From IMG/VR virus record IMGVR_UViG_3300037473_000305, positions 1 through 60,270 of that record: 60,270 nucleotides of DNA; one strand, 5' to 3'. The notes below the pieces were generated by a model that worked only from the letters and a program-made list of their open reading frames with translations, did not search any database and was not told the DNA's origin. The position numbers were made by a program, and so were the translations under genes. Shown here piece after piece: positions 1-38,669 of this stretch. This DNA is from a virus (lineage: Duplodnaviria > Caudoviricetes). Position 1 is the first letter of the stretch; every line of letters begins with the position of its first letter.

Positions 1-160
1 CCGGCAGGTATCGAGAAAGGATACTCGCCAGTTGAAGACTTTTCGCCTGAACCAGAAGCCGAAGTGTATCGGTAAAGCGCGGTGGTTGCCTTGCGGAATA
101 CGGAAGATCATTTCTTACCGGACAGGGTGAAAAAACCAATAAGTCCGCCGATAATAAGGC
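1..160. repeat. Left copy of terminal overlap (circular closure)
   Basis: Matches 60111..60270; identical over 35..160 (126 bp), with mismatches at positions 10, 21 and 34. Confidence 0.95.
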
Positions 161-308
161 TACAGCCTACGACAATCATCGGTATGGCCCCGGTCGTTCG
201 GGCCGGTATGGTGGATTCGTTTTTATCCCAGCCCCATGCCGCTAAAGCAATGCCGGCAGCAAACGCAAGCACACTCCAAAAAATCGGATTCTTTGATTCA
301 TTTGACAT
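108..308 (-). CDS. Small two-TM membrane protein (lysis region)
   Basis: Two hydrophobic segments; stop overlaps the ATG of the next gene (ATGA) across the circular junction. Confidence 0.7.
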   Translation of the reverse strand: MSNESKNPIFWSVLAFAAGIALAAWGWDKNESTIPARTTGAIPMIVVGCSLIIGGLIGFFTLSGKK

Positions 309-401
309 AAATAAATTGTTTAATTTTGATGTAGCTTATCTGCCATTTTCGAGTAGATGTAGTAAAGATGCCGTTCAGTAATGCTGTGCGGCATCGGCGT
401 T

Positions 402-1151
402 TTATTTTCGAAATGATATCAATATCTTCGTCCCCACGCCCGCATACCACGTATTCCCAACGGTTGCGCCGGTTACCTCGTATATCTTATTACCGCGTGT
501 TCTTAAGCTGACGTTCACCTGCCCGCCTGCCAGCGGGTTGATCTGATTTCCGAATAGGCCAATACCGGCATATACCTGGTTGCGTTGCTTCGCATTTACC
601 TTTGCATGCAGTTGCGCCATGCAGTCTTCCAGTTGGCTCGCAAACTTTTGGTTAAAATCCTTCTGTGCGTTGATGGTGCTGTCGCGCTGTGATATCTCGT
701 ATAGCATCAATTCATTAAGTTGGGAGATGGTTGTATCGCGCTGGGCAAGCTCACCCTCCTGCTGTTTTACTTTGACGACAAGGCTATCGCAGCCTTCTTT
801 GTAATCAGGATGTACTTTCACCCACGTGTCATCAGCCGGCTTGCTACGCGCCCTTTCGATCCTTGCAACGAGGCGGTTGATGGTGGCTTGTGAAGCAGTG
901 ACTTTGGCATTCGATTTGTTGAGCTGCTGTTGTACTTCTCCGCGTATTTTGGCTGCGCTGTCCGCCTGCCGATCTCTTCTGTTGAGCATTTGCCGGTAAT
1001 AATTTGCTGTGTCCTTAACCCTGGTAGCCAGCGCGTCATACTGCGCTTTCGAAACGCCATTTTCGTTGTGTGCCTTATTGCACAGCATCAGCAGTGCGAT
1101 CATGCAGCAAGCGATGACGAATAAAATAGGCCATGCGTTTTTCATAATCAA
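402..1151 (-). CDS. Spanin-like protein (N-terminal TM, coiled coil, C-terminal beta strands)
   Basis: Hydrophobic N-terminus, long heptad region, Gly/aromatic beta-rich C-terminus; lysis-module context. Confidence 0.55.
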   Translation of the reverse strand: MIMKNAWPILFVIACCMIALLMLCNKAHNENGVSKAQYDALATRVKDTANYYRQMLNRRDRQADSAAKIRGEVQQQLNKSNAKVTASQATINRLVARIERARSKPADDTWVKVHPDYKEGCDSLVVKVKQQEGELAQRDTTISQLNELMLYEISQRDSTINAQKDFNQKFASQLEDCMAQLHAKVNAKQRNQVYAGIGLFGNQINPLAGGQVNVSLRTRGNKIYEVTGATVGNTWYAGVGTKILISFRK

Positions 1152-1160
1152 TGAAATGAT

Positions 1161-1191
1161 TCAACCCCGACCTACGGAGTCAGGGTTGAAT
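1161..1191. terminator. Intergenic stem-loop
   Basis: ttcaacccc...gggttgaa inverted repeat between ORFs. Confidence 0.45.
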
Positions 1192-1194
1192 AGT

Positions 1195-1551
1195 TTAGAG
1201 ATTTGCGCCGGGCGTTTCGCCGCCTGTACCTGTTTCGTTCTGGGCCGGTGTATTGGCAGCTACGGCCGCAGCCAGTGCATTTGTGTTAGCGTCGAGTTCA
1301 TCACTCAACTGCTTCAGCGCTGCCGGGTCAGTAGCCGCATCGTCAAGCCTTTGTTTCAATCCCTGCAGCAGTGTAATAGCTGACTGCATTACCGTGTTGT
1401 TTTCCGCAACTTCCTGTTGCAATGTTTGAAGTTCTTGTCCCATTGTACTTAATTTTTGATTAATAGATTTGATTTCAGTAAACAGTTTGTCATCACCATG
1501 GTGGTGTATATGAATCTCGCCGCTGTGATGAAGATGTATGTGTAGTTGCAT
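1195..1551 (-). CDS. Coiled-coil hypothetical protein with His-rich N-terminus
   Basis: MQLHIHLHHSGEIHIHHHG followed by an Ala/Gln-rich helical region; TAATG coupling to the upstream gene. Confidence 0.75.
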   Translation of the reverse strand: MQLHIHLHHSGEIHIHHHGDDKLFTEIKSINQKLSTMGQELQTLQQEVAENNTVMQSAITLLQGLKQRLDDAATDPAALKQLSDELDANTNALAAAVAANTPAQNETGTGGETPGANL

Positions 1552-1808
1552 TACTTTTTGTTTTCCTTGTTTTGTAGCGCCACCAGGATATCAGTTAGCT
1601 TTCCGTTCATTGATTCGTACTTCGCATTGATCTGTTGATTCAGGTCTTTTATCTGTAATCCCTGGTCACGCGAGGCCGTTTCCAGAAACTCAATACGGAG
1701 CCGCTGCGTCTCAATCTTGTTCGACTGATTCACAATTAAAGTCACCACAGTAATTAATATTCCGATCGCCGCCATGATTGCATGACCTAGTTTAAGCGTT
1801 TTTTCCAT
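1551..1808 (-). CDS. Single-TM coiled-coil protein (holin/antiholin-like)
   Basis: Likely start MEKTLKLG; TM segment then coiled coil. Confidence 0.6.
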   Translation of the reverse strand: MEKTLKLGHAIMAAIGILITVVTLIVNQSNKIETQRLRIEFLETASRDQGLQIKDLNQQINAKYESMNGKLTDILVALQNKENKK

Positions 1809-2260
1809 CTTCGAAAACAGATTAATAATGCTGCCAGAATCATTAGTAATCCCTCTAGCGTCACCAGTACTTCCCATTGTTTGAAGCATAACCAATAATG
1901 AATTATATCAAGAATGCTAATAATAAGCACTACAGATAAGGCCAAACGGTAGGAGGGTGTCTTCTGCCTGATTAGTACTAAGGATAGGATAATGAGCGTT
2001 GTCGATAACATATTGCCGGTGTCGAATATATACCATTGCTCATCCTGTGTATATATGGTTCCGTCCGGCTTCCTTACATCTATCATGAACCAGTTAACCT
2101 GATGTGGTTTTGCATTGTTCCAGAACCGGTGAATCAGACAAACCGGCCATGATAGAAAGAGCAGTAAGGTACTAACCCCTGCCCTTGTTCGGGGGTGGCG
2201 CGCTTCCGCCGGTGTCATCTCCATTTTCGAAATCGTTGGTGTCAGGTATTTCAATTTCAT
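1787..2260 (-). CDS. Multi-TM membrane protein (start uncertain)
   Basis: 3-4 hydrophobic helices; annotated 5' part overlaps the small ORF at 2172..2336. Confidence 0.6.
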   Translation of the reverse strand: MKLKYLTPTISKMEMTPAEARHPRTRAGVSTLLLFLSWPVCLIHRFWNNAKPHQVNWFMIDVRKPDGTIYTQDEQWYIFDTGNMLSTTLIILSLVLIRQKTPSYRLALSVVLIISILDIIHYWLCFKQWEVLVTLEGLLMILAALLICFRRWKKRLN

Positions 2261-2336
2261 CGCCGACTTTAATCCCCTGTTCTTTTAACTCGGGATTATT
2301 GTCGAGGTCTTCCTGCGTAACTTTTCTCTTTTCCAT
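2172..2336 (-). CDS. Small acidic protein, 54 aa (not in ORF track)
   Basis: Hand translation MEKRKVTQEDLDNNPELKEQGIKVGDEIEIPDTNDFENGDDTGGSAPPPNKGRG*; A-rich leader. Confidence 0.65.
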   Translation of the reverse strand: MEKRKVTQEDLDNNPELKEQGIKVGDEIEIPDTNDFENGDDTGGSAPPPNKGRG

Positions 2337-2369
2337 GGTATGTTGATTTAATTAATAACACTTCAATTC

Positions 2370-2669
2370 TTATACCTTCGGGTCGACTGGTGGATTGTTA
2401 ACATCTACTTTATTCTGGTCAGCAGCCGTTAAGTTTGACACATAATTATCTTCTGTATCAACCAGCATCATGCCGATGAATTTAATGATCGCTACCAATC
2501 CGGTATTGATGTACAGATTCAATTGGAGGGCCATTGTACTACTATGCGTAACTCCCTGAATAATTGCTGTAGAGGCAGGTATCAGTACAAGTAATAATCC
2601 GCGCTCCAAAGATCGCCACCATCTTGGCGCCGGCCTGCTTGCACCTTGAGAACTTATAATTGTTGCCAT
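2370..2669 (-). CDS. Putative holin (2 TM)
   Basis: PAPRWWR N-terminus, two TM helices, position after tail genes. Confidence 0.55.
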   Translation of the reverse strand: MATIISSQGASRPAPRWWRSLERGLLLVLIPASTAIIQGVTHSSTMALQLNLYINTGLVAIIKFIGMMLVDTEDNYVSNLTAADQNKVDVNNPPVDPKV

Positions 2670-2685
2670 ATAGTTGATTTAGTTT

Positions 2686-2880
2686 TTACCGCGCTCTCCA
2701 ATTGCGAAGCAGTTCCTCTACTCTCAATAATACTTCTGATACACGAAAGAGGATTTGGTTTGTCTCAATGAGCACCTTATTTACCTCGGCCTCGCGTTTG
2801 TCGTGTCGTTTCACCAGCCAGACAATGACGCCGGATAAGGTAGTAATGGCTCCAATCAATATTGCCGTTGTCTCGTTCAT
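2686..2880 (-). CDS. Putative holin-like single-TM protein
   Basis: N-terminal TM plus charged amphipathic helix. Confidence 0.5.
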   Translation of the reverse strand: MNETTAILIGAITTLSGVIVWLVKRHDKREAEVNKVLIETNQILFRVSEVLLRVEELLRNWRAR

Positions 2881-2882
2881 TG

Positions 2883-5800
2883 CTAATATTTTCTAATCAA
2901 TCTCCATGTCACCCCGGCATCGACGTAGAAGTCATACGTCTTCCCCCAGTCCAGCTGCGTAAAGGTTGAACCGGTAGAATTATCGGTTATCGCAGAAGCC
3001 AAACTAAAATGATTGCTTCCGGCGCTGAACTTCATGATCACTGTCAATGTCTGACCCTGCTGCGAAGGTGTTGGCATGGTGAACGTTCTATTGGTGGTAA
3101 GGTTGTCGGTTACTTCCACGATTGCGATAGCAGCAGGCACGGTATGATTTGCGTCGGTGGTAACACCATCTACATTGTAAGTGATAGCGCCGTACAAATT
3201 AATATTGCTCGCGGAATAAACCGTAAAGCCTCCGAGCTTCGAACCTGAAGCGCCGAGTAACAGTGAACTGGTACCGCCGCCATTCACGGTTGTGGTTCCG
3301 GAAAGCGTACCACTACCGCCGTAGATACCATTACCGTCACCGCCTGATGGTACGGCTGCTTTTTTTACTTCCTTTGTCACCGGGTCTATCCACAGCATGT
3401 TAGCCGGGCTTCCGGCGCTGTCAACCGTTTGCAAAGAGACTTTGCCGGCGCTTGATATACGCATCTGCTCGGTGTTATTGGTTCCGATAATCAACGGGGT
3501 GTTATTAAGCGTGCCCAGTAGTAAGCCCCCACCTGATCCTCCACCGTGATACAACATTGTTTTATCTGCACAGGACACGCCAAAAAAAGATGAACCGAAC
3601 GACTGGCCACCGGTAAGAAACCCGCCATGAGCAGCCAGGCTACCCCGGTCGTTATCGATCAGCATGCTGGCATTTCCGGTTGAGCTTGCGTTTTGCAGGT
3701 AAATGGATGTGCGACCAAAAGCGCTATTCCCTAACACCTTAAATTGATCACTCGCAGTACCATTCACTTCAACTTCACCAGTTGTGTTTAATTTAAACTG
3801 ATTTGCTATGCCACCTGTCTCAAACGTGATCGGCCTATGTGAACCAGTACCTTCTATCTCACTCGAAATCTTATACTTTGTTCCTACAGCGGCAAAGGTC
3901 AATCTTTCGGTATTCGCATTTCCGGTTATAGGGAAACCAGTTCCAAGTGACGTATTATACATGTTGAATGCACTCATAATTGGAGATAACACGGCGTCAC
4001 CGGTCCCTGAGGGCGCTAACGACATAATTTGCGTGCCGTTAGTTACAGTAGGCTGTACTCTTAATATGGAGCTATTTGTTAGACCAGAAAGGTTATAGAG
4101 ATAGTTTGATGCTCCACCGGCAGTGCCACCGAAAATAAATGAGCTATTAGCCTTGATTTCATTTGTGAATGTCCTCACATTAGGATCTACTCTACTCCCT
4201 GATAATCTGGTGTAAATCGAGTCTCCGCCGTACTTGTTGAACAGGGCATTCCCGCCTCCCACTTCTGCCTGGCCAAGTGCATAAGAAGCGATACTACCCC
4301 TGCCGAGAGAACCGCTGTCATTAATAACATACTGTCTGTCCAGCCACGCCGGGGCGCCCGTTGTGGAACCATTGAAAAGCTCTCCTGCTAATGTGTGAAT
4401 GTTGAAATAGGTGGTCCCGGATGGAATCAGTCCAAATAAGTTATGATTTGGAACGTAAATTGAATTTTGTGACCACATGGCTGTTATCATGCCGGCTTCA
4501 ACTGGTGTAATACAATTAGCAAACGTATGAGCGAAGACAGACGCATGCGCTGTTGCATGATCTATTGTAACTCCTTCCGCATATATGAATCCGTATTTGA
4601 ATGCATAAGTGGAGACGTTTTTTACGCTGTTATAAATCTCTGAACTTATTTTCCCTATGATCACCCCTGCCACATCGTATATTGGTTGTGGCTGTCTTTT
4701 AATCGAACCACTAACACCGATGTATAGATTTTCCAGGCGCATGCTACCGCAGAACAGGCCATTAATTCCTCCTACAGAAGGACCGCCTGCCTTGTTATTC
4801 CTGGCGACCATGATGGTCAGATTTTTAAACGAGACGGAATTATAATTGAAATCACCGAAGGAACCACCGTTTGATCTGGTACCAAAAACAGATGGCAGGG
4901 TACCTGAGCCATTAATAATCGAATAGAGAATACTACCGTAAAATGGGCACACCGAATCGCCAAAAGTTGAGGGCGCCGGATTCATATCAGCAGCGCCTTC
5001 TATCGAAAACCATTTCCGCTCTAAAAAAGAAGGTGTACCATACACTGACGTTTTCCAAACCAATTGCGCATTCGGATTGGCACCTTCAAAAGAAGTGACC
5101 AATGGACCTGCCAAAACATATATACCTGCAGGCACATACACTTTTGCATCCCCTGCTACCGCCGCCGCATCAATAGCGGCCTGTATCATAGGCGTGTTAT
5201 CTGTCCCGAAAACCAGCGTATCAGCGCTCACCGATCGGGTAGCATTGGCACCCAATGTTACCGTTGAAGAATTCGAATAACCTATTATGGTAGTCACCAG
5301 GTCACCACCAGTTACCGCTCCGTCTACGCGTATTGATTTGCCTACGTCCGCTGATGTGAAGCTGCATGATGAGCAGGTGAGTGTAGGCGAACCAGATGTC
5401 ATCACCCCGTCATAGCGCTCTTTACCGTCCGGTTTGGCACCGTATCGAATTACATTGAATAATTTCGGCATGTCATCTATCTTCCGTTTGTCAACAACAG
5501 TCAGCACACCCGCCCGATTCGTTGTATCTGCGGCTGGTATTACCGCATCATTGCCGGTAGAGCTGAGTACAGTAACGCTGGTTGATGTTCGGGTGGTGTC
5601 GAGGTTTGTTGCCCCACCACCTGTTCCGATTGCCGCCCTTAATGCGGCCGCAGTATCGCGGAGTTTCGAGATGGATGCTACGTAGCTGATAGTATCAGCT
5701 GCCAACAGTAATTTATTGGAATTCGTGGAGATAGTAAGGGTAGCATCGTGATCAATTCGCTTGACCGCTGCGCCAGTCCATAAGGTATCACCAGCACCGG

Positions 5801-6191
5801 AGGCATTGGCGACGGAGGTGCCTGAGCCGCTGCCTGTACCTCTGATTCGTATAGTATCGCGCCCGACTTTAAACGTGCTATCAGTCAGTTGAACTGCTTT
5901 GTTTTCCTTAATCCATTGCGCGCCGGTATATACTTCGAGCGCTGAATCGTTTTCATTGTAGCGAACCGCGCCGGCTCTGTATGGAATATGAGTAGATGTC
6001 GCCAGGGGCAACATAGCTACACTGTCCATGGCAAAGCGTTTGTATCTGAACCCGTATCCGCTAATACCAGAATACTTTGCCGCATCTGTTTGTCCATAAG
6101 AAGAGATAAAGGCCATTACTGCGATAAAGACTGCCAGATATCTATTCCGGAAAGTCCTCCGCTGTATTGGCCTTTCAGCCCGTAGTGTCAT
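2883..6191 (-). CDS. Tailspike/depolymerase-like beta-helix protein with signal-peptide-like N-terminus
   Basis: FNVIRYGAKPDG...DNTPMIQAAIDAA...VYVPAGIY pectate-lyase-3-like cap; Gly/Ser/Thr-rich fibre-like C-terminus; last gene of the tail module. Confidence 0.75.
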   Translation of the reverse strand: MTLRAERPIQRRTFRNRYLAVFIAVMAFISSYGQTDAAKYSGISGYGFRYKRFAMDSVAMLPLATSTHIPYRAGAVRYNENDSALEVYTGAQWIKENKAVQLTDSTFKVGRDTIRIRGTGSGSGTSVANASGAGDTLWTGAAVKRIDHDATLTISTNSNKLLLAADTISYVASISKLRDTAAALRAAIGTGGGATNLDTTRTSTSVTVLSSTGNDAVIPAADTTNRAGVLTVVDKRKIDDMPKLFNVIRYGAKPDGKERYDGVMTSGSPTLTCSSCSFTSADVGKSIRVDGAVTGGDLVTTIIGYSNSSTVTLGANATRSVSADTLVFGTDNTPMIQAAIDAAAVAGDAKVYVPAGIYVLAGPLVTSFEGANPNAQLVWKTSVYGTPSFLERKWFSIEGAADMNPAPSTFGDSVCPFYGSILYSIINGSGTLPSVFGTRSNGGSFGDFNYNSVSFKNLTIMVARNNKAGGPSVGGINGLFCGSMRLENLYIGVSGSIKRQPQPIYDVAGVIIGKISSEIYNSVKNVSTYAFKYGFIYAEGVTIDHATAHASVFAHTFANCITPVEAGMITAMWSQNSIYVPNHNLFGLIPSGTTYFNIHTLAGELFNGSTTGAPAWLDRQYVINDSGSLGRGSIASYALGQAEVGGGNALFNKYGGDSIYTRLSGSRVDPNVRTFTNEIKANSSFIFGGTAGGASNYLYNLSGLTNSSILRVQPTVTNGTQIMSLAPSGTGDAVLSPIMSAFNMYNTSLGTGFPITGNANTERLTFAAVGTKYKISSEIEGTGSHRPITFETGGIANQFKLNTTGEVEVNGTASDQFKVLGNSAFGRTSIYLQNASSTGNASMLIDNDRGSLAAHGGFLTGGQSFGSSFFGVSCADKTMLYHGGGSGGGLLLGTLNNTPLIIGTNNTEQMRISSAGKVSLQTVDSAGSPANMLWIDPVTKEVKKAAVPSGGDGNGIYGGSGTLSGTTTVNGGGTSSLLLGASGSKLGGFTVYSASNINLYGAITYNVDGVTTDANHTVPAAIAIVEVTDNLTTNRTFTMPTPSQQGQTLTVIMKFSAGSNHFSLASAITDNSTGSTFTQLDWGKTYDFYVDAGVTWRLIRKY

Positions 6192-6206
6192 ATCGTTGAA
6201 TATTTT

Positions 6207-7616
6207 TCAAATGATTCTGTAAAAGTTTGTCGCTACGTTCTTTGGTCTCGATTCAGTTCCCTGGTCTTTTATTCGAGCATCTTCCCAGCGCGCAGAATTC
6301 ATACCTCCTATTCGATATTCCTGTGATGCGCTGCCGCTGTCCACGGCATTCGGGGTAAAATCACCACCTGCTTCATCTGCTTTTGCGGATGCTCTGTTAT
6401 AGGGTAATGTAATGTGGTTGTGCGCCTTGTTCTCATCGGCCTGGTATGAACCAGCCAGCCTCGGACCGCCGAGATCAATAGTTCCGTTTGAGCTTGTTGC
6501 CCTGATTGACAAGCCGCTGGTGTCAGGCACCCAAAATTTAGTGCTTCCTATGATCCACTTGGTGAGGTTGTCAATATCAGGTGTTGCATCCTGTGTACCA
6601 GTTCCTAATTCAGACCCTGGCAATTCGGCTATGTACCAGTTAAACAAACGGGGGTAGTCAGTTTTCAGATACCATCCGCCGGTTTCCGGCAAGGTATTGA
6701 CAGGCTGTAATCCGTCTGCAAATATTCTGTGCCCCAAACGGCGATAATCCCCATCCCAATGGACGATGCGCAAATAGGAGCCCTTTTTAATAAATGTCAC
6801 TTCTTCGCCACGACCGACGTAGATAGAGTTCCTCTGTTGCGGGCCATTTATCGTGTTGTTGATTAAACAATATCTGCCTGAGTTTAATTGCAGCGTTACA
6901 TACCGCTGATTCCCATTGTGTGTATTGATGCCGAATATGGTGCCATTCGGTATCGCATCCAGACTTGATATAGTTATTGTAAGAATCGAGCCGGCGCCAG
7001 CGGCATTCACTTCTAACAATTTGTTATAATGGGTACTGCCGAATGCTGTATCACTCGTAAGTTCAAGCACATCTGATGGGTATGGTTTGCCGCTGGTTGT
7101 TGAGCTGGTTGAACTGATATTACTGTACTGAACGGTATAACCTTCTTCATTACCGAATTGTGAGCCGTCTATGAATTCGAAGCCGCCGCCAGATATTGTT
7201 TGTATATTGATGCCCCATTTCAGGGCTCCATAGCCTTCTTTAAAAACCAAATAATCTTTTCCGTCAAGATCCGGGTTCACATATTGCGTATCTCCTGATA
7301 CGGGATCATATTCGGGCGCCCCATTACCGCGATCAACAACAAATTGAATATAACCGAACGCAACTTCATTTGAAATAGAAGCATCAATATCACAGACCCC
7401 ACGTAGTTCATCCAATGTTGTACCGTCAGAGGTAGTCCAAAACTCTACCCGATGCATGACAGGATTGAGATTATCAACAGTAACATTGCGGATAGTATGC
7501 GGTGGAGTTAAAACAGTACTTCTGTAGACTTCGGCAAGAGGATCATCCGACTCGCGAACTACCATGAGGAAGTCACTTGTCGAAACGATATTGAAGCTAA
7601 TAAAAATCTTTGCCAT
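6207..7616 (-). CDS. Tail fibre protein with tail-collar-like C-terminal domain
   Basis: DYPRLF...VPD.SG...GSYQADENKAHNH...ESRPKNVA pattern typical of collar/short-fibre domains. Confidence 0.7.
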   Translation of the reverse strand: MAKIFISFNIVSTSDFLMVVRESDDPLAEVYRSTVLTPPHTIRNVTVDNLNPVMHRVEFWTTSDGTTLDELRGVCDIDASISNEVAFGYIQFVVDRGNGAPEYDPVSGDTQYVNPDLDGKDYLVFKEGYGALKWGINIQTISGGGFEFIDGSQFGNEEGYTVQYSNISSTSSTTSGKPYPSDVLELTSDTAFGSTHYNKLLEVNAAGAGSILTITISSLDAIPNGTIFGINTHNGNQRYVTLQLNSGRYCLINNTINGPQQRNSIYVGRGEEVTFIKKGSYLRIVHWDGDYRRLGHRIFADGLQPVNTLPETGGWYLKTDYPRLFNWYIAELPGSELGTGTQDATPDIDNLTKWIIGSTKFWVPDTSGLSIRATSSNGTIDLGGPRLAGSYQADENKAHNHITLPYNRASAKADEAGGDFTPNAVDSGSASQEYRIGGMNSARWEDARIKDQGTESRPKNVATNFYRII

Positions 7617-8558
7617 TTATTCTACATTTTCAACTGTGATGATGTTGGAACTACCCTGTTCGTTGGTATCGAAAAAGCCCTTGCTGCTTACATTCAGCAT
7701 CACGTTCAGTTCTTCGTTTGTATCTTCCGTCGCGCTAAACACCTTGCTATTTCTGTTAATCTGCTCTCTGAGTTCTATTCTGTAACTCCTTAATAACCCA
7801 TTTTGAATGTTGTCACCTTCCTCAATCTTGGCTCCCTCCTGTTTGGTATAGTGCTTGCCATCTATTCGAAGATCACTACACCCAAATACCCAGTTCAACT
7901 TATCGATCATCCAATCCGGCAGGCCACCATCTGGACCAAACAATACCAGTTCCCATATACGGTAAGGTTTTGAATCGACCAGGGTCATATCGAGCACCTG
8001 GTCTTCGTATAGCGTGTCTTTGCTGGCTGGTGGTTGTAGTCTGATAAACCCATGCACACGTAGAGAGAACTCAACACCCGTTTCGAAGACTACGCCCCCT
8101 TTGTATTTGCGATGTTTGTATTGTAAAAGTAACGTATTTTCAAGGTTTTCAGAAACTTCAATCGGTTCCGAAATAAGCCTTTTGTTTGGACCGGTACCTA
8201 TTTCTGCCAGCAGATAATAAATTCCTTCAGGTAATACATTCAGGGCCTGACTGCTTTCGTAGATAAAGTATTCCGGCTCATATTGGTTCTGCTGCTTTTG
8301 CTGCATCGGAGTAGTAAAAAAAAGATTCTCCTTACAATCTATTACCTTAATATTAACAGCACCGGCATTGTTTATAAACTGGTTAACAATAACGTCTTTT
8401 CTAATCCATGGCTGTCTGTAGCCACCGTTCTGCCACCTGTTCTTGCGTTCAGCCAATAGATAGTCATCCATGTGCTTACTGATGTACTGCTGTATTTCGT
8501 CTGGATTCACGTCATACCAGGTGATCGGAAGTAAGTAGGAGGTGTAGGTTCTAGCCAT
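7617..8558 (-). CDS. Tail tip/baseplate protein (putative)
   Basis: 313 aa; position downstream of tape measure. Confidence 0.55.
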   Translation of the reverse strand: MARTYTSYLLPITWYDVNPDEIQQYISKHMDDYLLAERKNRWQNGGYRQPWIRKDVIVNQFINNAGAVNIKVIDCKENLFFTTPMQQKQQNQYEPEYFIYESSQALNVLPEGIYYLLAEIGTGPNKRLISEPIEVSENLENTLLLQYKHRKYKGGVVFETGVEFSLRVHGFIRLQPPASKDTLYEDQVLDMTLVDSKPYRIWELVLFGPDGGLPDWMIDKLNWVFGCSDLRIDGKHYTKQEGAKIEEGDNIQNGLLRSYRIELREQINRNSKVFSATEDTNEELNVMLNVSSKGFFDTNEQGSSNIITVENVE

Positions 8559-17819: not shown

Positions 17820-19081
17820 TAGCTACCAGAATCTATTACTGAGCGAATGCGTGTCAGCTGGTCATATACCAGGGCAGGTTTGCGGCTTGTGCTGATATAG
17901 TCGTGGTAACGCACCTCAGCAATTACGCTGAACTGGTTACGCTGGAAGTCGTCATTGTTGTAACCAACTTTCAGTACCATATCCTTGTACACATCCACAT
18001 TGTACTGGTTGACGTCACCTACAAGGGCATACCCTTCTGCCACTTTGTTGCCTTCGCGCATGATTGACTGCAAGCGCTGAAGGAAAGGTGGAATGAGGTA
18101 CAAGCGGTCGGTAGCAGACTTCTGCATCTCAACCAAGGCACCTGTAACCGGATTGATACCGATGAAATTGGCGTTGAAATTGTTCTTACCGACCTGCGCG
18201 ATCATCGCACGGAGCGCATCGTAAAAGTTTGAATCATCCACCTGCCCATTGAGGCCGGTCATGGTATAAGCCTGTGCGGCAGCAATTATGGCTGTATACA
18301 CATCGTCATCCCATTTGCGGGCAACGGTGTCAGTCAAAAGACGCTTTACGATCGTAGTGAAACCGGGCAAGTCCTGGTCGAACTCCTCGGTGATCACTGA
18401 CATGGCTGCAGTCTTTTTTGCCTGTGACATTTCCACTTTGAAGCGGGTATTCCACAGCGGCTTGGGTGCGCCTTCCTGTACCTGTGCGGCAGCACCTTCA
18501 ACGGACGTTTCATTCACCCATGGAAGCAGGGCAAAATTGGTATTGCCACGGTTGACATAGTTGATGATGAAATTCGGGTTGTACATGATACCGAAGAAAT
18601 TCGTAGCATTTACAGGCCCGGCAACCGGTAAGAATGGACTGTTCGGTGCCGGGGTCATTGGCTGTATGCTATTGCCAATGGAGGTGCTACCGGATGTCTT
18701 GAGCGTAATATTGCTCAGCGGAATTTCGATCACACCCGAGCCAGCTTTTTGAATGGCTTTGATTTGTTTGATGGTTTCCTCATCAGAGAGCAAATCTTCC
18801 AACGCCTTCGGCTGTGAAGGATTATTACCTTCTTTCAGGGCATTGATGATGTTTCCCTGTTCTTTCAGGGCCTCTTCAACCTTTGAAAGCGATTCGGTAA
18901 CCTTCGCCAGTTCTTCAGCCTTGAAGGCGTCAAAATCTTTTGAGGTCATCAGGCCTTTTCTTACATCTTCGATCTTGTCGTTGATGCTTTTTTCAGAAGC
19001 CGCGAACTGTTCTTTTATTTTCGTCGCCGCCTCTTTGCCAACTTTCTCGGTTAGCTCGGTGAATTGTTGTTCTGTTAACAT
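17819..19081 (-). CDS. Major capsid protein (HK97-like, N-terminal coiled-coil scaffold domain)
   Basis: About 110-aa coiled coil then AAQVQEGAPKP and DFQRNQFSVIAEVR motifs. Confidence 0.88.
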   Translation of the reverse strand: MLTEQQFTELTEKVGKEAATKIKEQFAASEKSINDKIEDVRKGLMTSKDFDAFKAEELAKVTESLSKVEEALKEQGNIINALKEGNNPSQPKALEDLLSDEETIKQIKAIQKAGSGVIEIPLSNITLKTSGSTSIGNSIQPMTPAPNSPFLPVAGPVNATNFFGIMYNPNFIINYVNRGNTNFALLPWVNETSVEGAAAQVQEGAPKPLWNTRFKVEMSQAKKTAAMSVITEEFDQDLPGFTTIVKRLLTDTVARKWDDDVYTAIIAAAQAYTMTGLNGQVDDSNFYDALRAMIAQVGKNNFNANFIGINPVTGALVEMQKSATDRLYLIPPFLQRLQSIMREGNKVAEGYALVGDVNQYNVDVYKDMVLKVGYNNDDFQRNQFSVIAEVRYHDYISTSRKPALVYDQLTRIRSVIDSGS

Positions 19082-19100
19082 TGTGAACCTTAGTTATAGG

Positions 19101-19955
19101 TTAAACAATAATTTTTACTTGCTTTATCGCGAGGTTCAAATCAAATGTTGACGGCTCTTTCTCAGTGCTGTGAGGCGGCTGATCCGTAGTGTCTTGAGTT
19201 GAATCCATCTTGCCTAATTGTGTTGTTTCAAGGGTAGGTGTTGCGGAGTTACTACCGAATAAGACTGCGCTTCCTTCCATAATCTTTGCTTCCAGTACAG
19301 CCCAAAAGAAGCCTTCTTTTTCAGCCTCATCACCGTTAGCTACCATGGGGAAATACTTATCCCAGTTCTCCTTTTGAACTGGGTATTCATCATCATTTAT
19401 ACATGTAACGAGTTTTACATACTGCATCCCAACTGAATGGTTTTTCACCCGTTTCTTGGCATACTGCTCGTACATATACTCATTTCGATCTTTCTCAACG
19501 ATGGCATTAAATAACAGTGCTTCGGTGGTGCCGGCGTAATCAAGTCCCAATTCTTTCCACGTTAATGTCTTTGTAGATGCTGCACACTCTTCTGCGATGA
19601 CGTCCTGAAAAGAACGCCCATGAGCTTCCAGCAGGTAGAAGCCACTTCGCTTGTTATCGGATAGGGACTTCTTCCATAATCCAGGTATATGAACATCCCA
19701 GTGACTATCGAACCAGTTCGTGGTATTGATCACCGGGACAACTTTTAATTTGCCATTATCTTCGACAGGCATCAATGGATCGCCTTCTGCCTTGTTAACC
19801 AAGTTGCCTTTCTCATCCACAAGCAATGGCGCCGAAAAGAAGCCATCAGTTTCCTTGGTAATACTTTTTTTGGCGTTGAATATCAAAGCCTCGTTTTTCA
19901 CCAGGTAGTTGAATAACTCCTTGCCCGTTAAATTGCTGGGGATGAAATTTTTCAT
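19101..19955 (-). CDS. Prohead maturation protease
   Basis: DSHWDVH, HSVGMQY, EGSAVLFGSN motifs; between portal and capsid. Confidence 0.8.
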   Translation of the reverse strand: MKNFIPSNLTGKELFNYLVKNEALIFNAKKSITKETDGFFSAPLLVDEKGNLVNKAEGDPLMPVEDNGKLKVVPVINTTNWFDSHWDVHIPGLWKKSLSDNKRSGFYLLEAHGRSFQDVIAEECAASTKTLTWKELGLDYAGTTEALLFNAIVEKDRNEYMYEQYAKKRVKNHSVGMQYVKLVTCINDDEYPVQKENWDKYFPMVANGDEAEKEGFFWAVLEAKIMEGSAVLFGSNSATPTLETTQLGKMDSTQDTTDQPPHSTEKEPSTFDLNLAIKQVKIIV

Positions 19956-20021
19956 TTCTTTATAATTTTTTTGTCGGCCACCTGCTTGTCTTTATCGAAC
20001 ATTTTTGCTTCAAGTATTTTT

Positions 20022-21455
20022 TTATCCACCTTGATTTTCGGTGGTTGCTTCTTGTCCTTGTCCTTCATTGGTATTTTGATTTTGTGTTTCCTGATTTAAT
20101 TTCTTCCACTCACTGTAATAGATATCACCTCCATCCGGCAGCGGATCTTCGCCGTTTAATTCAAGCCATCTATTGCGAGTGATCAGATCATTCTGCCATT
20201 CGATCAGCAACGCATCATTACGAGACTTGCGTGCCTGCGCCGCCTGCACCTGATCTTCCTGTAGGACTTGCACATGCGTGAAATCTTTATCGATGATGAT
20301 GTTGAATCGTTGTGTGTCGAACAGTTGGTTCCATTGCTCGTACATGCTTTCCGCTTCAGGAATGGTAGCGTCCTGGTAAAGCAACTTTTTGCCCTCATTC
20401 AGATTTGAGAAAGTGGTTCCCTTTGCTGAGGACATTAATTGATACGGATAGTTGTAGGCGTCGCAAATAGCCATGGTATTGGCCTCAATTTCCTCAAATA
20501 GCATAAGGTCCCTGGTCGGAACGCCCATGCTTTGCCATTTCAATGAAGCGGAAGTAATGATGAATTGCCATTGGTGGTTTTTTAAACCGTACCGGCGGAA
20601 GTCCTGTTGTAACTGTTCCTTCGATTCAGGCGTCATTGCAATGGGTCCATAAGTACCCGTTCCCGGGTCCTGACTGAGAATACCTAATGCGCCCCGATAA
20701 TTAATGAGCACATTACGTGACTCATAGGCACCGATGATGTTATTGATCGGCATAGAGAGAGCAGCAATACGGGATTCTGGTAGAACTAACGTGCAGAAGG
20801 AAGGTGTGAAATCTTTCATGATGAAGATTTCAGAAGGCTTCAGCTTAGTTTCAATTCCTTTGTATGTAAGGGTAATGTCGCTGATCATCCCCGATATATC
20901 GGACTGATAAAACAGTTTTTTTGTTTCCTCTATGCTGAGCATCGTTGGAGGGATATTCCAAAGACTGGATGCATCAATATTATCTTTGAAACCCGCCGGC
21001 TTTATGGGCAGAACTATATTAAATCCGAATAACTGTTGATAGATATACCCTTGCGCTTCGAATTGCTTCCAGGATTGTAATGGGTTCGGTTTATTGATCA
21101 GCGCTTTGATCTTGCTTGCTTCAGCACCTGTCGCTTCTTTACCTTTCGCTTTCCCTTGCGTATTCAGCACCCACGTCTTACCATTGATGTACGCCTGTGC
21201 TTTTCTATTGATGATGGCATTAACTGGCGGGCATCTTTCATAAGCTCGTTGTGAGTCCGGGTGACCGGAATAGGTGAAGTAAAAAAAAGACTTTCCATGC
21301 TGCTCGAAAAACCAGTTGCCGTTTGTGTCAATAGATGGGCGGTAATCGATGGGGGAGACATAGAACGGATCGGGTGGCGTCAACGATTTTAAAGCGGTTC
21401 CAAAATCGCCTCGAAGAAGTTCCTTGCCAGCTGTTAATAATCGTTGTGTATTCAT
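20022..21455 (-). CDS. Portal protein (HK97-like)
   Basis: LINKPNPLQSW..F, TFSN..E..K.LYQ..IP, ITRN motifs; start taken at MNTQRLL. Confidence 0.9.
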   Translation of the reverse strand: MNTQRLLTAGKELLRGDFGTALKSLTPPDPFYVSPIDYRPSIDTNGNWFFEQHGKSFFYFTYSGHPDSQRAYERCPPVNAIINRKAQAYINGKTWVLNTQGKAKGKEATGAEASKIKALINKPNPLQSWKQFEAQGYIYQQLFGFNIVLPIKPAGFKDNIDASSLWNIPPTMLSIEETKKLFYQSDISGMISDITLTYKGIETKLKPSEIFIMKDFTPSFCTLVLPESRIAALSMPINNIIGAYESRNVLINYRGALGILSQDPGTGTYGPIAMTPESKEQLQQDFRRYGLKNHQWQFIITSASLKWQSMGVPTRDLMLFEEIEANTMAICDAYNYPYQLMSSAKGTTFSNLNEGKKLLYQDATIPEAESMYEQWNQLFDTQRFNIIIDKDFTHVQVLQEDQVQAAQARKSRNDALLIEWQNDLITRNRWLELNGEDPLPDGGDIYYSEWKKLNQETQNQNTNEGQGQEATTENQGG

Positions 21456-21461
21456 ATAAAG

Positions 21462-21508
21462 AAAAAAGGGCCACAACCACCGAAATGGTCATGGCCCTCT
21501 TGGGGCGC
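21462..21508 (-). promoter_or_regulatory. Hairpin plus U-tract on the portal leader, overlapped by a tandem G(A/C)GNNCC motif
   Basis: Minus strand GCGCCCC-AA-GAGGGCCatgaccatttcggtggttgtggcccTTTTTTctttatATG. Confidence 0.55.
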
Positions 21509-21535
21509 AATATTTTTTTTGTCAGCGTTGGCCCG

Positions 21536-21739
21536 CTATGCTCTAAGTCTTTCTGCTCGTGGTTGCTCAACTATTGGGGGCGCTTGCTGTGTATGTGTTA
21601 TCTCTGCTGTTGTATAAGTCGCACAATGCTTGCACTTGAACCGGGCTTTGCCGTATTCAATCTCACCAATTATCTTGTTACATTTGGAATTACTACAACG
21701 AATTGTCCTCACAGTTACGAAATTATAATTTATTTTCAA
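21536..21739 (-). CDS. Com-like (phage Mu) zinc-finger regulator
   Basis: IRC.N.KCNK.IG......FKCKHC four-Cys ribbon in a 67-aa protein. Confidence 0.7.
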   Translation of the reverse strand: MKINYNFVTVRTIRCSNSKCNKIIGEIEYGKARFKCKHCATYTTAEITHTQQAPPIVEQPRAERLRA

Positions 21740-22355
21740 TTCTTCCTGAATTTTCTATATTTTGAGAATTTGGCTCCATATGACCCCTGCTTCGTCGGTC
21801 GCAGGTTACTAAGGGCAACTCAATGAAATTGGTGGGAACTTGCGAGGTGACTTCCTTGATATACCGGTAATCCCCTGCTTTCTGCCCATCCAAACCTGAC
21901 AGCATCTTGTATTTTGAGTGCAGCACCATGCAGGGCAGGCCGATCTTTCCTTCGACGATCACTTTCTTCCGGATGTAATTTTCAGCTGGCTTAGGAACAC
22001 TATTACGCAGGAATTGACAAATTATAGCGCCGGGCGTCTGCAGATGGACGGCCAGTTCTTCCAGAATGGTCGGTCTCGTCAGTGTATCGTCATCGTCAAG
22101 GAACATAAACCAGCCCTCTGTGACCAGCGTTTTCAGGTCATTACTATAGCAGTCGTAAAAATAAGGCAGACTGTTATCGGCATAAACAAAGAGTTTGGTA
22201 AGGTCTTGCGGAATATAGTCAAGGGCTGATGCGCGGTCATACCCGACGATGATGCGATAATGTTGATAAGTCTGTTGATGGATTGATTGCAGGCAGCGGG
22301 CAAAGAGTTGCGGGCGGTTACTTGTGCGAATGAGGATATTGATCAGCGCGTTCAT
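21723..22355 (-). CDS. Glycosyltransferase family 2-like
   Basis: ILIRTSNRP..F..CL.SI..QTY, IIVGYD, FMFLDDDD. Confidence 0.88.
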   Translation of the reverse strand: MNALINILIRTSNRPQLFARCLQSIHQQTYQHYRIIVGYDRASALDYIPQDLTKLFVYADNSLPYFYDCYSNDLKTLVTEGWFMFLDDDDTLTRPTILEELAVHLQTPGAIICQFLRNSVPKPAENYIRKKVIVEGKIGLPCMVLHSKYKMLSGLDGQKAGDYRYIKEVTSQVPTNFIELPLVTCDRRSRGHMEPNSQNIENSGRIENKL

Positions 22356-22894
22356 GGCTTGGTCACAACTAAGGTCTTCCAATCAGGATGCCCTTCTTGT
22401 TTGTACGCCCTGTGCGGCATCCTCAGTACTAAGTCCTGTGTTTCCTGGCTGGGCATCCAGACCGAAGGTTGACACCAGTTATCAAGGATAAGGCGACCGC
22501 CGCGGTTTAGGTGCCTTACCGCTTCGATCACGCAAGCATCCCTTAGTTCAACCGGCTCGTTGTCCACCACAATAATATCGAAGAAGCCGCTGTGAAAATG
22601 GCTGATAATATCGGGTGAGTAGTCGCCACCCATGTGGATGGCGACTGTCGCGTTGTTAGACAGGTTTTCTCTTACGGTATTCGCCCATTCAAGATTATTT
22701 TCGATGGCGTAGACCGCGCGACACTTCGCCGCCCACCACAACGTACTTGCGCCGCACCCGTATTCAAATACTACCTTGTCTTTCAAATCCCATGTCACCA
22801 GATCATCGAGAAACGATTTGGTATACCACGGTAACACAAGGCCAGTGTCCGGGCATCGGTGTTGCCATTCGTTTATTGAGTTGAGATCAATCAT
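22352..22894 (-). CDS. Class I SAM-dependent methyltransferase
   Basis: VFEYGCGASTLWW motif I, FDIIVVD, L..GG.LILDN. Confidence 0.85.
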   Translation of the reverse strand: MIDLNSINEWQHRCPDTGLVLPWYTKSFLDDLVTWDLKDKVVFEYGCGASTLWWAAKCRAVYAIENNLEWANTVRENLSNNATVAIHMGGDYSPDIISHFHSGFFDIIVVDNEPVELRDACVIEAVRHLNRGGRLILDNWCQPSVWMPSQETQDLVLRMPHRAYKQEGHPDWKTLVVTKP

Positions 22895-22996
22895 TTCAAA
22901 AAGATTGATATTATTCCTGCTATACCTAAACCATAACAGATACCCGCAATGAACCACATGATTACTTCTTTACGAGTATATTGCTCCATATTTGCT

Positions 22997-23584
22997 TTAA
23001 TCATCATCAAATTTATAAGGCCCCAAAGATAACCCCCGGAACTGGTTAACGTCAATCTTATTGCTGACGAGTGTTGCACCTGCCCCGCCGCCGTTCTTAT
23101 TGTAGTTGAGACGGTAGGTGAATTTGGCGAATACAGGTTCAAAACCATAGTTACCGGCGCCTCCAATCTCGGTGTCATGTACACAAATGATCTGAGCTTT
23201 GTCCCTCATGCGTTCAATGGCTATCTTGCGATGTTCACCTGGGGCGTGGTCACAAAAGAATAGACCGCATTCTCGGTAAACGCTGGGTAACTCCCAAGAC
23301 GATGTATAGTTTGACCCGGTCTTTGTCGCCCATTCCTTATTGGATTCCCAGCTTTCGAACGGCCTTTCATTGGCACTACAGTACTTTCGTAAGTAAGGTG
23401 TACTACCTTCGCCCGAACCAAACTCAATAACTAGGTCTTTTGTGAGAGCCAGTCCAAGCAGAAGCATGGGTAAATGATTATTCCAGTTGCCGGTGACGCC
23501 TTGCAAGAAACCAAACTCATCATTCATATTAATACGAGTTATCTCTATGGCAAAGGGACTCGGTTCGCTATTTATATCCCGCAT
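22997..23584 (-). CDS. SAM-dependent methyltransferase-like protein
   Basis: VIEFGSGEGST motif I, FFCDHAP, ICVHDTE. Confidence 0.7.
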   Translation of the reverse strand: MRDINSEPSPFAIEITRINMNDEFGFLQGVTGNWNNHLPMLLLGLALTKDLVIEFGSGEGSTPYLRKYCSANERPFESWESNKEWATKTGSNYTSSWELPSVYRECGLFFCDHAPGEHRKIAIERMRDKAQIICVHDTEIGGAGNYGFEPVFAKFTYRLNYNKNGGGAGATLVSNKIDVNQFRGLSLGPYKFDDD

Positions 23585-24306
23585 AACGCCTCCTTAAATT
23601 TAAGAATGAACGAATAATCTTCACCCGGCCACAGCTTTTCAAACACTTCAATCTGAGCGTCCCAGTCGCCTCGGGGCATGTGGACGTCAATAATGTCACC
23701 AGGTATGTGCTTAAAATCAAATCTGTCCCATCTACCTGTAGGCAGCCCGTGTTTGTTTTGATTACCACGGTCAACGAAGGTGATGCGTTCCATGCCATAC
23801 TCATGCGCGCGTTGGGTGAGCAGTTGCTGGTCAACGCTCCAGTAATCTTCCCATTTGTCAGAATATGACTTGTCAGGAATTGTAAACTCGCCCATCAGTT
23901 CCTGCCATTTAGCTGATGTAGCCTTGACATAACAGATTGGAATTTCTGACCTGCCAGTTAAATCATAACCGTAAGAAACTATCTGCCCGTCTTCCACAGG
24001 ATGAGTAAAAATATCTTTTGCTATTATCATGTCCGCGTCTGCCGTGATCAATATGTCGGAATCTTCACAACCTTTAACGAACAATCTTTTGAGTTGCGCA
24101 AATGTCGAATCCCTTACGTCCTTTACAGATGGGTTACCGAAAATATGTGCGGGACAATATTCCATCAGCTTGAATTGAATTTCTTCCGGCACATTGATGG
24201 CATATACTATCGGCCAGTACCCAATCTTTCGCCAGCTATGACATGTGAGAGGGAGTAGCTCAAAGTAGGATGAATTATTATCTGTGCTGAGAATGGCGTA
24301 TTTCAT
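23572..24306 (-). CDS. GT-A-fold glycosyltransferase-like protein
   Basis: ILITADADM DxD motif; later DQQLL and C-terminal His (DVH). Confidence 0.65.
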   Translation of the reverse strand: MKYAILSTDNNSSYFELLPLTCHSWRKIGYWPIVYAINVPEEIQFKLMEYCPAHIFGNPSVKDVRDSTFAQLKRLFVKGCEDSDILITADADMIIAKDIFTHPVEDGQIVSYGYDLTGRSEIPICYVKATSAKWQELMGEFTIPDKSYSDKWEDYWSVDQQLLTQRAHEYGMERITFVDRGNQNKHGLPTGRWDRFDFKHIPGDIIDVHMPRGDWDAQIEVFEKLWPGEDYSFILKFKEALCGI

Positions 24307-24893
24307 AATAAATCTTTTCGGATGAATAAAGAATTCCAGTAATTCAGCCCCGCCCCATGCGCCTCCGTCAACTCATGCTGCACCGGCTCGTACCACCTCA
24401 ATAAGTTCTCCATGCACTTATCGTAATACTGATCGTGTAAGGCGCGGTGGCAGTGGAGGTGAAATTCAACGCTGATTTGTTTGGGAATGGATTGAAAGTT
24501 GGGGTCGGATAAAAGAAAGTACTCTGTACCCTCTACATCTAACTTCAGGATGTCGATTGTTTTACCTTGTTGCTCAACCAAGTCATTGTACAAGTCGTTA
24601 ATGCCAATGCCTGTGATGTGCTTACCAGTGTTACTGATAAATTTAGCCTGTTGATCTTTTGTATCAATATAAAGGTATTCGCCATACTTAGGCATTAGGG
24701 CGAACCTCATAAACGTAATGCCATCGGGATTCTCAGGATGCATATCTTCCAAATCCATTGCTATCACTGGACATCCCAAATTACGTATTGCCTCTGCAAA
24801 CTGGAAGCCTCTGCAGCCCGCATCGATGCAGATGCCGCCGGTAAGGAGGTCGAGGTCAACAGAATGCTCAGCGATACATTGTATGTTCATCAC
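24303..24893 (-). CDS. FkbM-family methyltransferase
   Basis: CIDAGC, IDILKLDVEGTEY, QISVEFH. Confidence 0.9.
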   Translation of the reverse strand: MMNIQCIAEHSVDLDLLTGGICIDAGCRGFQFAEAIRNLGCPVIAMDLEDMHPENPDGITFMRFALMPKYGEYLYIDTKDQQAKFISNTGKHITGIGINDLYNDLVEQQGKTIDILKLDVEGTEYFLLSDPNFQSIPKQISVEFHLHCHRALHDQYYDKCMENLLRWYEPVQHELTEAHGAGLNYWNSLFIRKDLL

Positions 24894-26364: not shown

Positions 26365-26626
26365 TTGGGAAAGGATTTTCGGTGAATACTGATACTGGCG
26401 GCATGCCTGTGCCACTTATCGACAACCACACAACGCCCGTTCGTTGAATTTCTTCAAGATCTTCTTTTGATAGTTTCCAGCATGATATGATCGTGGGACA
26501 GGTAGTGCCGTTTTCGTCAATGGGCGCGTCGCCTTTCCATACTGAAAGATCGCTGCACTGTTCATCCGTCCAACCTTCCGGCTTTTTAAAAACAAAGTTG
26601 TGTTGTGGGAATGTTACTGGTAGCAT
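26357..26626 (-). CDS. Hypothetical protein, 89 aa
   Basis: ISCWKLS.EDLEEI.RTG.VWL...PPV; tightly packed in operon. Confidence 0.7.
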   Translation of the reverse strand: MLPVTFPQHNFVFKKPEGWTDEQCSDLSVWKGDAPIDENGTTCPTIISCWKLSKEDLEEIQRTGVVWLSISGTGMPPVSVFTENPFPNG

Positions 26627-26627
26627 A

Positions 26628-28971: not shown

Positions 28972-29063
28972 AAAAAATGCGCCTTCAACTCGGGAGTATC
29001 CAGCGCAGATTAACTTACTAACGCAAGTCATTTTCGATCCCGATTTCGCAAATGACCTTTTGG

Positions 29064-38614: not shown

Positions 38615-38669
38615 TGTTTGATTTTTAAATTGTGAAAGAATAGCTTTCACATGTTCTGTTGGTTGGGCC

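Follow-up and report, generated by a model that had tools for sequence, protein, structure and literature searches.

A predicted siphophage spike with a Bacteroidota-type export leader and a stalk rich in O-glycosylation sequons

The window analyzed here is a whole uncultured virus record, IMGVR_UViG_3300037473_000305 (60,270 nt, completeness rating "complete"), and the gene in question, P0001, occupies positions 2883..6191 on its minus strand (6191 to 2883, stop codon included) and encodes a protein of 1102 amino acids (aa). The best explanation of its sequence and structural model is that P0001 is a glycan-cutting receptor-binding spike, predicted to belong to a temperate siphophage. It most likely matures in the periplasm and not in the cytoplasm. 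Export combined with glycosylation by the host appears highly probable, and the full route that ends on the virion has about an even chance of being correct.

According to the translation, the N-terminus of P0001 is basic (residues 1-17, net charge +5), continues with a hydrophobic or small-residue stretch (18-33), and then reaches Gln34, which agrees with the preliminary description, although the latter gave no strand. The leader (residues 1-33, positions 6093..6191; this and all other parts of P0001 lie on the minus strand) has a hydrophobic core of about 12 residues (18-29), with Ser31 at −3 and Gly33 at −1. Its hydropathy maximum of 3.0-3.2 is located at residues 20-21, and residues 15-29 form a helix in the AlphaFold model. 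Signal peptidase I is predicted to cut before Q34, and the exposed Gln would then be converted to pyroglutamate. In the available text of PMC5837995, Gln at this position is a trait of the substrates of signal peptidase I in Bacteroidetes and not in related phyla. The leader was called for P0001 by conservation and by a simple home-made rule, i.e., a nine-residue hydrophobic window of at least 2.3, then small residues at −3 and −1, then Gln.

A search with residues 1-240 against 1.84 billion representatives returned 327 proteins at E ≤0.001, about 65 of which align from their own residues 3-12. In the database, the gene call for this protein, P0002 (1077 aa), has Met26 as its first residue, which lies within the hydrophobic stretch, so that the part encoded at 6117-6191 (minus strand) is missing from it. 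Of 66 aligned N-termini, however, about 58 have residues before Met26, and these columns are conserved (F14 in 57, R15 in 49, K/R17 in 54, Y18 in 48, L19 in 47, and A20 in 47 of about 58), so the start of P0002 is judged to be wrong. Thus, a true start downstream of the hydrophobic stretch, which the preliminary description named as a possible refutation of export, finds no support. Gln at +1 and Ala, Gly, or Ser at −1 are each present in 62 of the 66 aligned relatives. Two isoforms made through an internal start were also considered and are unsupported, with Met26 present in only 9 of the 66 relatives, Met60 in 28, and Met55 outside the five commonest residues of its column.

In most relatives the leader is long (32-38 residues) and includes a conserved F-R-[DN]-K-Y-L-A piece. 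Six relatives, in turn, carry the same mature domain behind short generic leaders of 18-21 residues, which implies that the N-terminus functions as an interchangeable export signal. Leaders ending with small-x-small followed by Gln also precede at least four further N-module types, which look unrelated by eye. The same succession of hydrophobic N-terminus, small-x-small, and Gln is found in 26 of 35 other proteins (P0003-P0037), and the leader rule holds for 95 of 176 gathered proteins; those without a leader are mostly distant fibres that have only a generic fibre repeat in common. Homologues lacking the signal peptide, the second possible refutation, are therefore not what the family presents, and judging from the sequences the leader of P0001 is real and behaves as an export signal. 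Clipped-leader gene calls also occur in relatives P0005, P0006, P0015, and P0037. Because automatic calls start inside or after the leader, leader-bearing phage fibres are likely under-counted in public protein sets.

As for other export systems, the twin-arginine translocation (Tat) pathway was rejected: P0001 contains R11-R12-T-F, yet Arg-Arg is found in only 2 of 58 relatives (Arg-Lys in 12, Phe-Lys in 6). Type IX secretion cargo was rejected as well, since no C-terminal sorting-domain model of NCBIfam (Por_Secre_tail or Bac_Flav_CTERM type) matched P0001, P0005, P0007, or P0022. At E ≤0.01, NCBIfam reported no family for P0001, P0005, and P0007, and only a weak rhamnogalacturonidase match for P0022. 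A separate observation concerns the n-region of the long leaders (residues 14-20, window 6132-6152, minus strand), which is conserved in about 47-57 of 58 sequences, far beyond what Sec export needs, and is not a Tat motif.

The second body of evidence comes from the sequon D-[ST]-[AILVMT]. P0001 contains 13 of them, at residues 56, 82, 104, 112, 135, 166, 179, 198, 222, 324, 412, 657, and 924, compared with 4.2 ± 2.0 in shuffles of the same residues. Residues 1-225 hold 9 (all within 56-222), compared with 1.35 ± 1.1 expected from shuffles. The exact recount agrees with the earlier count by hand, and none of 2000 shuffles reached the observed value either for the whole protein or for residues 1-225. 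The tape measure protein (1143 aa), used earlier as a comparison, has 2 sequons and not about 1. Four sequon columns of the mature N-terminal domain are conserved (56-58, 82-84, 104-106, and 111-113), and they keep the grammar of the motif: D56 is present in all 66 sequences, Ser or Thr at 57 in 64, and V, I, L, or T at 58 in 65, with column 105 alternating between Thr (44) and Ser (12).

An enrichment test across homologues, which the preliminary description had proposed, gives a consistent result. The 29 leader-bearing relatives have 361 sequons vs 129 expected (2.8-fold), with control motifs that are flat or depleted (reverse 1.09x, E[ST]x 0.66x, N[ST]x 0.97x, D[AG]x 1.09x, and D[ST] plus other residue 0.61x), whereas seven leaderless relatives have 28 vs 29.1. 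Among the 176 gathered proteins, the 95 with a leader contain 1176 sequons vs 423.5 expected (2.78-fold), and the 81 without contain 453 vs 503.9 (0.90-fold). Z exceeds 2 in 82 of the 95 and in 9 of the 81, some of the latter being clipped gene calls, and these pooled Z-scores overstate independence because homologues are related.

The same difference is seen in less dependent checks, in Pan5 (below) and within the genome of this phage. Its six leader proteins have 29 sequons vs 9.3 expected (3.1-fold; 16 vs 5.2 without P0001), while all other open reading frames of at least 80 aa have 35 vs 36.3 (0.96-fold) and the leaderless virion genes 12 vs 14.2. Spanin-like proteins belong to a type with a known periplasmic function, and the one encoded in the window (402-1151, minus strand; coiled coil, lipoprotein-like N-terminus) serves as an in-genome positive control with 5 sequons vs 0.5 expected. 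Sequon excess thus follows the leader both across relatives and within the genome, which is what selection for periplasmic glycosylation predicts, and the earlier reading of P0001 as exported and glycosylated is supported. According to the available part of PMC12871550, glycosylation of the D-[ST]-hydrophobic motif is restricted to non-cytoplasmic proteins, its occupancy is almost complete, and it is functional when engineered in. Host O-glycosylation of P0001 in the periplasm is a well-supported prediction. Regarding the position of sequons in the 12 closest relatives, the region before the helix (stalk) has a 5.2x excess and the helix 2.2x, and the distal part drops to 0.43x (10 vs 23.4 expected), a pattern suggesting that glycans are selected against at the distal binding end.

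Behind the leader, P0001 consists of four parts. The mature N-terminal domain (type-A N-module, residues 34-118, 5838..6092) is a small beta domain. It is followed by the stalk (119-240, 5472..5837), which comprises a Gly/Ser linker, a segment conserved in relatives, and one tail-fibre repeat, and holds 5 of the 13 sequons. Next come a right-handed parallel beta-helix (241-665, 4197..5471), predicted to be a polysaccharide depolymerase or modifying domain, and a distal part (666-1102, 2886..4196) that is poorly modelled, variable among relatives, and sequon-poor. The AlphaFold model (monomer, 32-row alignment) is confident only at residues 241-665, with a predicted local distance difference test (pLDDT) score of about 90; the N-domain model has a pLDDT of 72, and the stalk and distal part are mostly below 50.

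Structure comparison of residues 243 to about 705 (252-300 residues aligned, root-mean-square deviation 2.7-4.9) gave the highest VIA Z for alginate epimerase/lyase 8ja4 (25.9), followed by phi29 gp12 3gq7 (23.9), CBA120 TSP1 4oj6 (23.0), and the HK620 tailspike 2x85 (21.8). Foldseek also relates P0001 to the Klebsiella K1 lyase (E 7.5e-6), and at the profile level it matches phrog_32881, annotated as "pectin lyase activity" (E 7.6e-16). Pfam and NCBIfam scans of P0001 reported no family, and the N-domain model (residues 34-130), compared by fold on its own, had no usable match (best Z 2.5). For residues 1-240, Protein Atlas scores were all below 0.9 and can be taken as leads only; they point to viral and Bacteroidota clusters and a "phage tail like trimerisation" family.

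The build of the family is modular. The leader and N-module are common to about 65 cluster representatives, and the bodies behind them in 22 relatives include GDSL esterases (5), BNR (BNR_2) sialidase-like (3), pectate-lyase-like (2), a SASA esterase (1), and a DUF5907 repeat (1), with 10 having no Pfam match. C-terminal or distal ends differ between relatives as well. Residues about 189-239 form one copy of a tail-fibre repeat that reaches up to 21 copies in leaderless phage fibres, and the distantly related catalytic cores of P0020 and P0025 belong to ordinary fibres that have no leader. Such a build, in which the anchor is conserved and both enzyme and tip can be exchanged, is the hallmark of receptor-binding spikes. 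P0001 thus combines the beta-helix fold, the tail-module position, and the N-terminal anchor with exchangeable bodies that are typical of tailspikes; the conserved leader and Gln at +1 set it apart from another tailspike trait, which is cytoplasmic production without an export signal.

A scan of genome contigs for related loci produced one weak Gemmatimonadaceae match only. Viral contigs contained one locus (L003), belonging to a different phage in which the spike gene comes behind capsid, connector, and tail-type genes and ahead of an integrase; this spike is 43% identical over residues 231-928 and has its own short leader. From metagenome contigs came 78 loci, almost all of which match no more than residues about 240-370 (L004 is the only one of the 78 used here), and tblastn of P0001 against INPHARED found 4 records, all within parts of residues 240-497.

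The genome contains an integrase, recombination and replication genes, terminase, portal, capsid, and tail module, and then lysis genes. According to PHROG matches of the neighbours, the tail module runs from the tape measure through proteins of 708 aa, 313 aa (both structural), and 469 aa to P0001, which is its final gene. Holin, endolysin, and spanin genes are located directly downstream, beginning with small membrane proteins and the spanin-like lipoprotein. Only 15 A/T-rich nt separate the stop of the 469-aa gene from the ATG of P0001 at 6191. A promoter and terminator scan of window positions 1-8000 found promoter-like sites at chance level and no convincing terminator between the tail genes and P0001.

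The 469-aa protein (6207..7616, minus strand; phrog_523/327, tail collar fibre / tail protein) is a leaderless fibre or baseplate protein and a candidate docking partner of P0001. It has 93 homologue clusters with 30-74% identity, mostly near full length. Two of its homologues lie on contigs equal in size (7274 and 52644) to those of two long-leader spike relatives, and none on contigs equal in size to those of spikes with other N-module types, a thin hint that the two genes may travel together. A complex prediction of the 469-aa protein (36-row alignment) with P0001 residues 34-125 (44-row alignment) scored 0.00 in both runs and speaks neither for nor against binding.

The host phylum is likely Bacteroidota, judging indirectly from three features of the genome: the best terminase matches belong to phages of Porphyromonas, Elizabethkingia, Alistipes, Flavobacterium, Bacteroides, and Parabacteroides, an Arm-DNA-bind_5 domain is present in the integrase, and six proteins obey the Gln rule. 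A cultured relative with the same arrangement is the siphophage Pan5 of Pseudanabaena (ON968456.1, locus L086), which has about 16 genes in common with the window, including the tape measure (32% identity), the 708-aa gene (31% over 96%), and the 313-aa and 469-aa genes in the same order. At the position of P0001, Pan5 encodes gp18 (973 aa), which has a long leader, small-x-small, and then Gln, as well as 14 sequons vs about 3.6 expected. BLASTP detects no match between gp18 and P0001, and hhalign of the gp18 leader and N-domain to the type-A profile reports a probability of 94.9% (E 4e-8, 82 columns). In contrast to the beta-helix of P0001, the body of gp18 is SO2946-like_C with a weak Laminin_G_3 match just below the Pfam cut-off. 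Pan5 gp19 is 30% identical to the window lyase at 37427-38716 and has its own leader. In total, three Pan5 proteins, gp07 ("cement protein"), gp18, and gp19 (5945-6346, 18042-20963, and 20965-22086, respectively), have leaders obeying the Bacteroidetes Gln rule; the leader-bearing proteins contain 27 sequons vs 6.4 expected (4.2-fold) and the remaining proteins 41 vs 31.

Pan5 was published as a cyanophage, grown in a culture with co-existing bacteria (PMC9837993, available text). The same source states that the particles were CsCl-purified and marks, in a figure, the structural proteins that mass spectrometry (MS) detected. "Bacteroidetes" occurs 0 times in the paper and leaders are not discussed in its available text, though the term "signal peptide" was not searched for. 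Either the trait is not confined to phages of Bacteroidota hosts, or the true host of Pan5 is a Bacteroidota member of the non-axenic culture. In view of the Bacteroidota-type leaders, the host assignment of Pan5 deserves a second look.

Taken together, the proposed route would be as follows. P0001 would be expressed late with the tail genes and made as a preprotein, and its 33-residue leader would take it through the Sec translocon. Host signal peptidase I would cut before Gln34 and a host cyclase would form pyroglutamate, in line with the Bacteroidota Q-rule. The host's general O-glycosylation system would then decorate the sequons, crowded on the proximal stalk and avoided distally, in the periplasm, where the beta-helix would also fold. 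Since the tail is built in the cytoplasm, spike and tail could meet only once the lysis genes open the envelope; after holin, endolysin, and spanin have acted, the spike would find the finished tail and dock by its conserved N-module. We infer translocation, cleavage, glycosylation, and, above all, late docking on the virion.

Joining the particle is favoured by the spike-type modular build, the position in the tail module, the sequon-poor distal end, and the MS/MS annotation of leader-bearing proteins in Cellulophaga phage phi18:3, discussed below. As for the generalization that a large lineage of Bacteroidota phages builds its spikes outside the cytoplasm (with Sec export, a pyroglutamate cap, a stalk bearing host O-glycans, a bare tip, and attachment at lysis) and swaps "leader + anchor + enzyme" cassettes, it is put forward tentatively, at slightly less than an even chance.

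Several observations weigh against periplasmic maturation followed by docking. The leader rule is home-made, pooled Z-scores carry the dependence mentioned above, and the cleavage, glycans, and virion presence of P0001 are all predictions from sequence. Conserved D-S-x columns could be structural, and sequons 198 and 222 sit in the generic fibre repeat, which has similar triplets in leaderless fibres of other phages. No fold match with any known baseplate-docking domain came up for the N-domain either. The 469-aa protein, which is fibre-like, leaderless, and of collar type at its C-terminus, could be the essential receptor binder, and infectivity could then be independent of P0001. Outside the tail module the phage encodes two more exported glycan enzymes, so free exported enzymes belong to its repertoire. 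The published cyanobacterial host of Pan5, if right, weakens the Bacteroidota reading. In phi18:3, the leader-bearing proteins are not sequon-rich (1 each vs 2.9-3.7 expected). Finally, the trait is not general to Bacteroidota phages, as leaders are absent from the tail proteins of Porphyromonas phage005b and Tenacibaculum phage JQ.

Among the alternatives, the one that survives best is that P0001 is exported and never enters the particle, acting instead as a free or envelope-associated depolymerase in the periplasm or on the surface of the infected or induced cell. Such an enzyme would strip or modify the host surface polysaccharide and thereby ease release, stop progeny from re-binding to debris, or block superinfection, with the 469-aa fibre as the true binder. 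The leader and sequon evidence applies to it equally, two further leader-bearing glycan enzymes lie away from the tail genes (37427-38716 and 56594-59140), and the 469-aa protein just upstream is conserved in its 93 clusters. Exported tailspike-fold enzymes do exist, since Pantoea WceF, trimeric and Tat-exported, acts on the exopolysaccharide of its own cell (PMC7949094, available text), and Matrishin et al. read the Q-rule proteins of P. gingivalis phages as host-surface modifiers (PMC10367356, available text). The build of P0001, however, is that of a virion receptor-binder (conserved N-module, generic fibre repeat, swappable cores and distal ends), its gene is only 15 nt behind the tail genes, and leader proteins are annotated as MS/MS-detected structural ones in phi18:3. 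Distal sequon avoidance (0.43x) also suits a binding tip better than a soluble enzyme. Overall, a free depolymerase is a possible but rather doubtful outcome.

It is much less probable that P0001 is exported but stays uncleaved, as signal-arrest-release endolysins do. Its hydrophobic N-terminus would then be a signal anchor that keeps the spike at the inner membrane's outer face until depolarisation by the holin releases it to join the particle or to act as an enzyme. Such an anchor would suit the hydrophobic stretches of most long-leader relatives (18-19 residues, rich in Ala and Ser), the F-R-[DN]-K-Y-L-A n-region conserved beyond plain Sec need, and the lysis genes directly downstream. In P0001 itself, however, the core has only about 12 residues, and in six relatives the domain sits behind short leaders of the usual kind. 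Unrelated leader types repeat the pattern of small residues at −3 and −1 and then Gln, which fits Q-rule cleavage as described in the available part of PMC5837995. The least credible explanation, that P0001 is not exported at all, with a start at Met26 or later or with the helix as a buried assembly element of a cytoplasmic fibre and D-S/T-x as a structural motif, can appeal to the automatic call P0002 and to D-T-T triplets in the fibre repeat common to leaderless fibres, but it is contradicted by the conserved amino-acid sequence before Met26, the rarity of Met26 and Met55 among relatives, the lack of sequon excess in leaderless proteins (0.90-0.96x) with flat control motifs, and the excess common to unrelated leader-bearing proteins of the same genome.

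As for the remaining features of the window, an 848-aa protein (56594-59140, minus strand), encoded after a GH19 endolysin near the integrase end of the genome, has an esterase-like N-part with matches of the polyhydroxybutyrate-depolymerase type, a beta-helix, three PKD-like domains, and a short leader before Gln. It looks like a second exported glycan-active protein and has 7 sequons vs 2.8 expected. A polysaccharide lyase (PF14099) with a CBM6 module is encoded among early or middle genes (37427-38716, minus strand); its listed TTG start is probably too far upstream, because an internal Met gives a leader ending before Gln. Two small proteins of 97 aa (39626-39919, minus strand) and 180 aa (51321-51863, plus strand) also have leaders ending before Gln, and the former has 2 sequons vs 0.3 expected. 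Between terminase and portal (about 21723-29031, minus strand) lies a block of small cytoplasmic-type enzymes, with at least three glycosyltransferase-like genes (21723-22382, 26628-27197, and 27194-27847) and methyltransferase-like genes at 22352-22957 and 24303-24893, the latter of FkbM type. No gene in this block exceeds 300 aa and could be a flippase or oligosaccharyltransferase, and nothing found there speaks for or against the link between the glycosyltransferase genes and P0001 that was suggested earlier. Candidate targets of the block would be virion proteins, a lipid-linked glycan of the host, or DNA.

Tailed-phage particles are taken to assemble wholly in the cytoplasm. If the proposed route is true, a spike that matures in the periplasm with host glycans would be a new assembly step for tailed phages, the virion would carry host-made glycans as a shield of the stalk with a bare binding tip, and host range would depend on the secretion and glycosylation machinery of the host. 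It would also matter for phage engineering and for heterologous production of Bacteroidota phage depolymerases, as the E. coli product would have neither glycans nor pyroglutamate. Gene callers that clip the leader, as with P0002, would hide the trait. The cultured phage Pan5, having the same arrangement and published particle mass spectrometry, provides a ready test system.

In comparison with known systems, P0001 resembles classical tailspikes and appendages (HK620, Det7, CBA120 TSP1-3, phi29 gp12, and Acinetobacter and Klebsiella depolymerases), which have a similar beta-helix (Z 21-24 over 252-293 residues), the same tail-module position, an N-terminal anchor, and a swappable enzyme body. 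Classical tailspikes are made and assembled in the cytoplasm and are not known to have leaders. P0001, in contrast, has a conserved leader of cleavable type and a sequon-dense stalk. Proteins gp085, gp086, and gp087 of phi18:3 (NC_021794), a cultured phage with a Bacteroidota host, are neighbouring tail-region proteins whose Lys-rich hydrophobic leaders end before Gln, like that of P0001, and in the record they are listed as structural "based on experimental MS/MS". However, phi18:3 is a podovirus, and these proteins have no sequence relation to P0001.

Pantoea stewartii WceF resembles P0001 in being a glycanase of trimeric tailspike fold with an N-terminal export signal that acts outside the cytoplasm; it differs in having a Tat signal and in being encoded in a chromosomal exopolysaccharide cluster, with no phage tail context or O-glycosylation motif system in the available description (PMC7949094). 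Bacteroidota general O-glycosylation substrates show the motif above chance in non-cytoplasmic proteins, as P0001 does, but P0001 is phage-encoded and spike-like, and "phage" occurs 0 times in the available text of that review (PMC12871550). In searches of full-text literature, no paper turned up on tailed phages whose tail fibres or spikes bear leaders or O-glycans. Closest among published work are the Q-rule proteins of Porphyromonas gingivalis phages, whose signal peptides, as predicted for P0001, expose Gln after cleavage and are taken as an adaptation to host Sec; as far as the available text goes, however, these are five genes without known function, read as host-surface modifiers and not as fibres or spikes (PMC10367356). 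What the present case contributes is a lineage of temperate siphophages in which leader-plus-anchor cassettes form a very large family, together with a control from within the genome, a sequon pattern that is rich proximally and poor distally, and a cultured relative for which particle proteomics exists.

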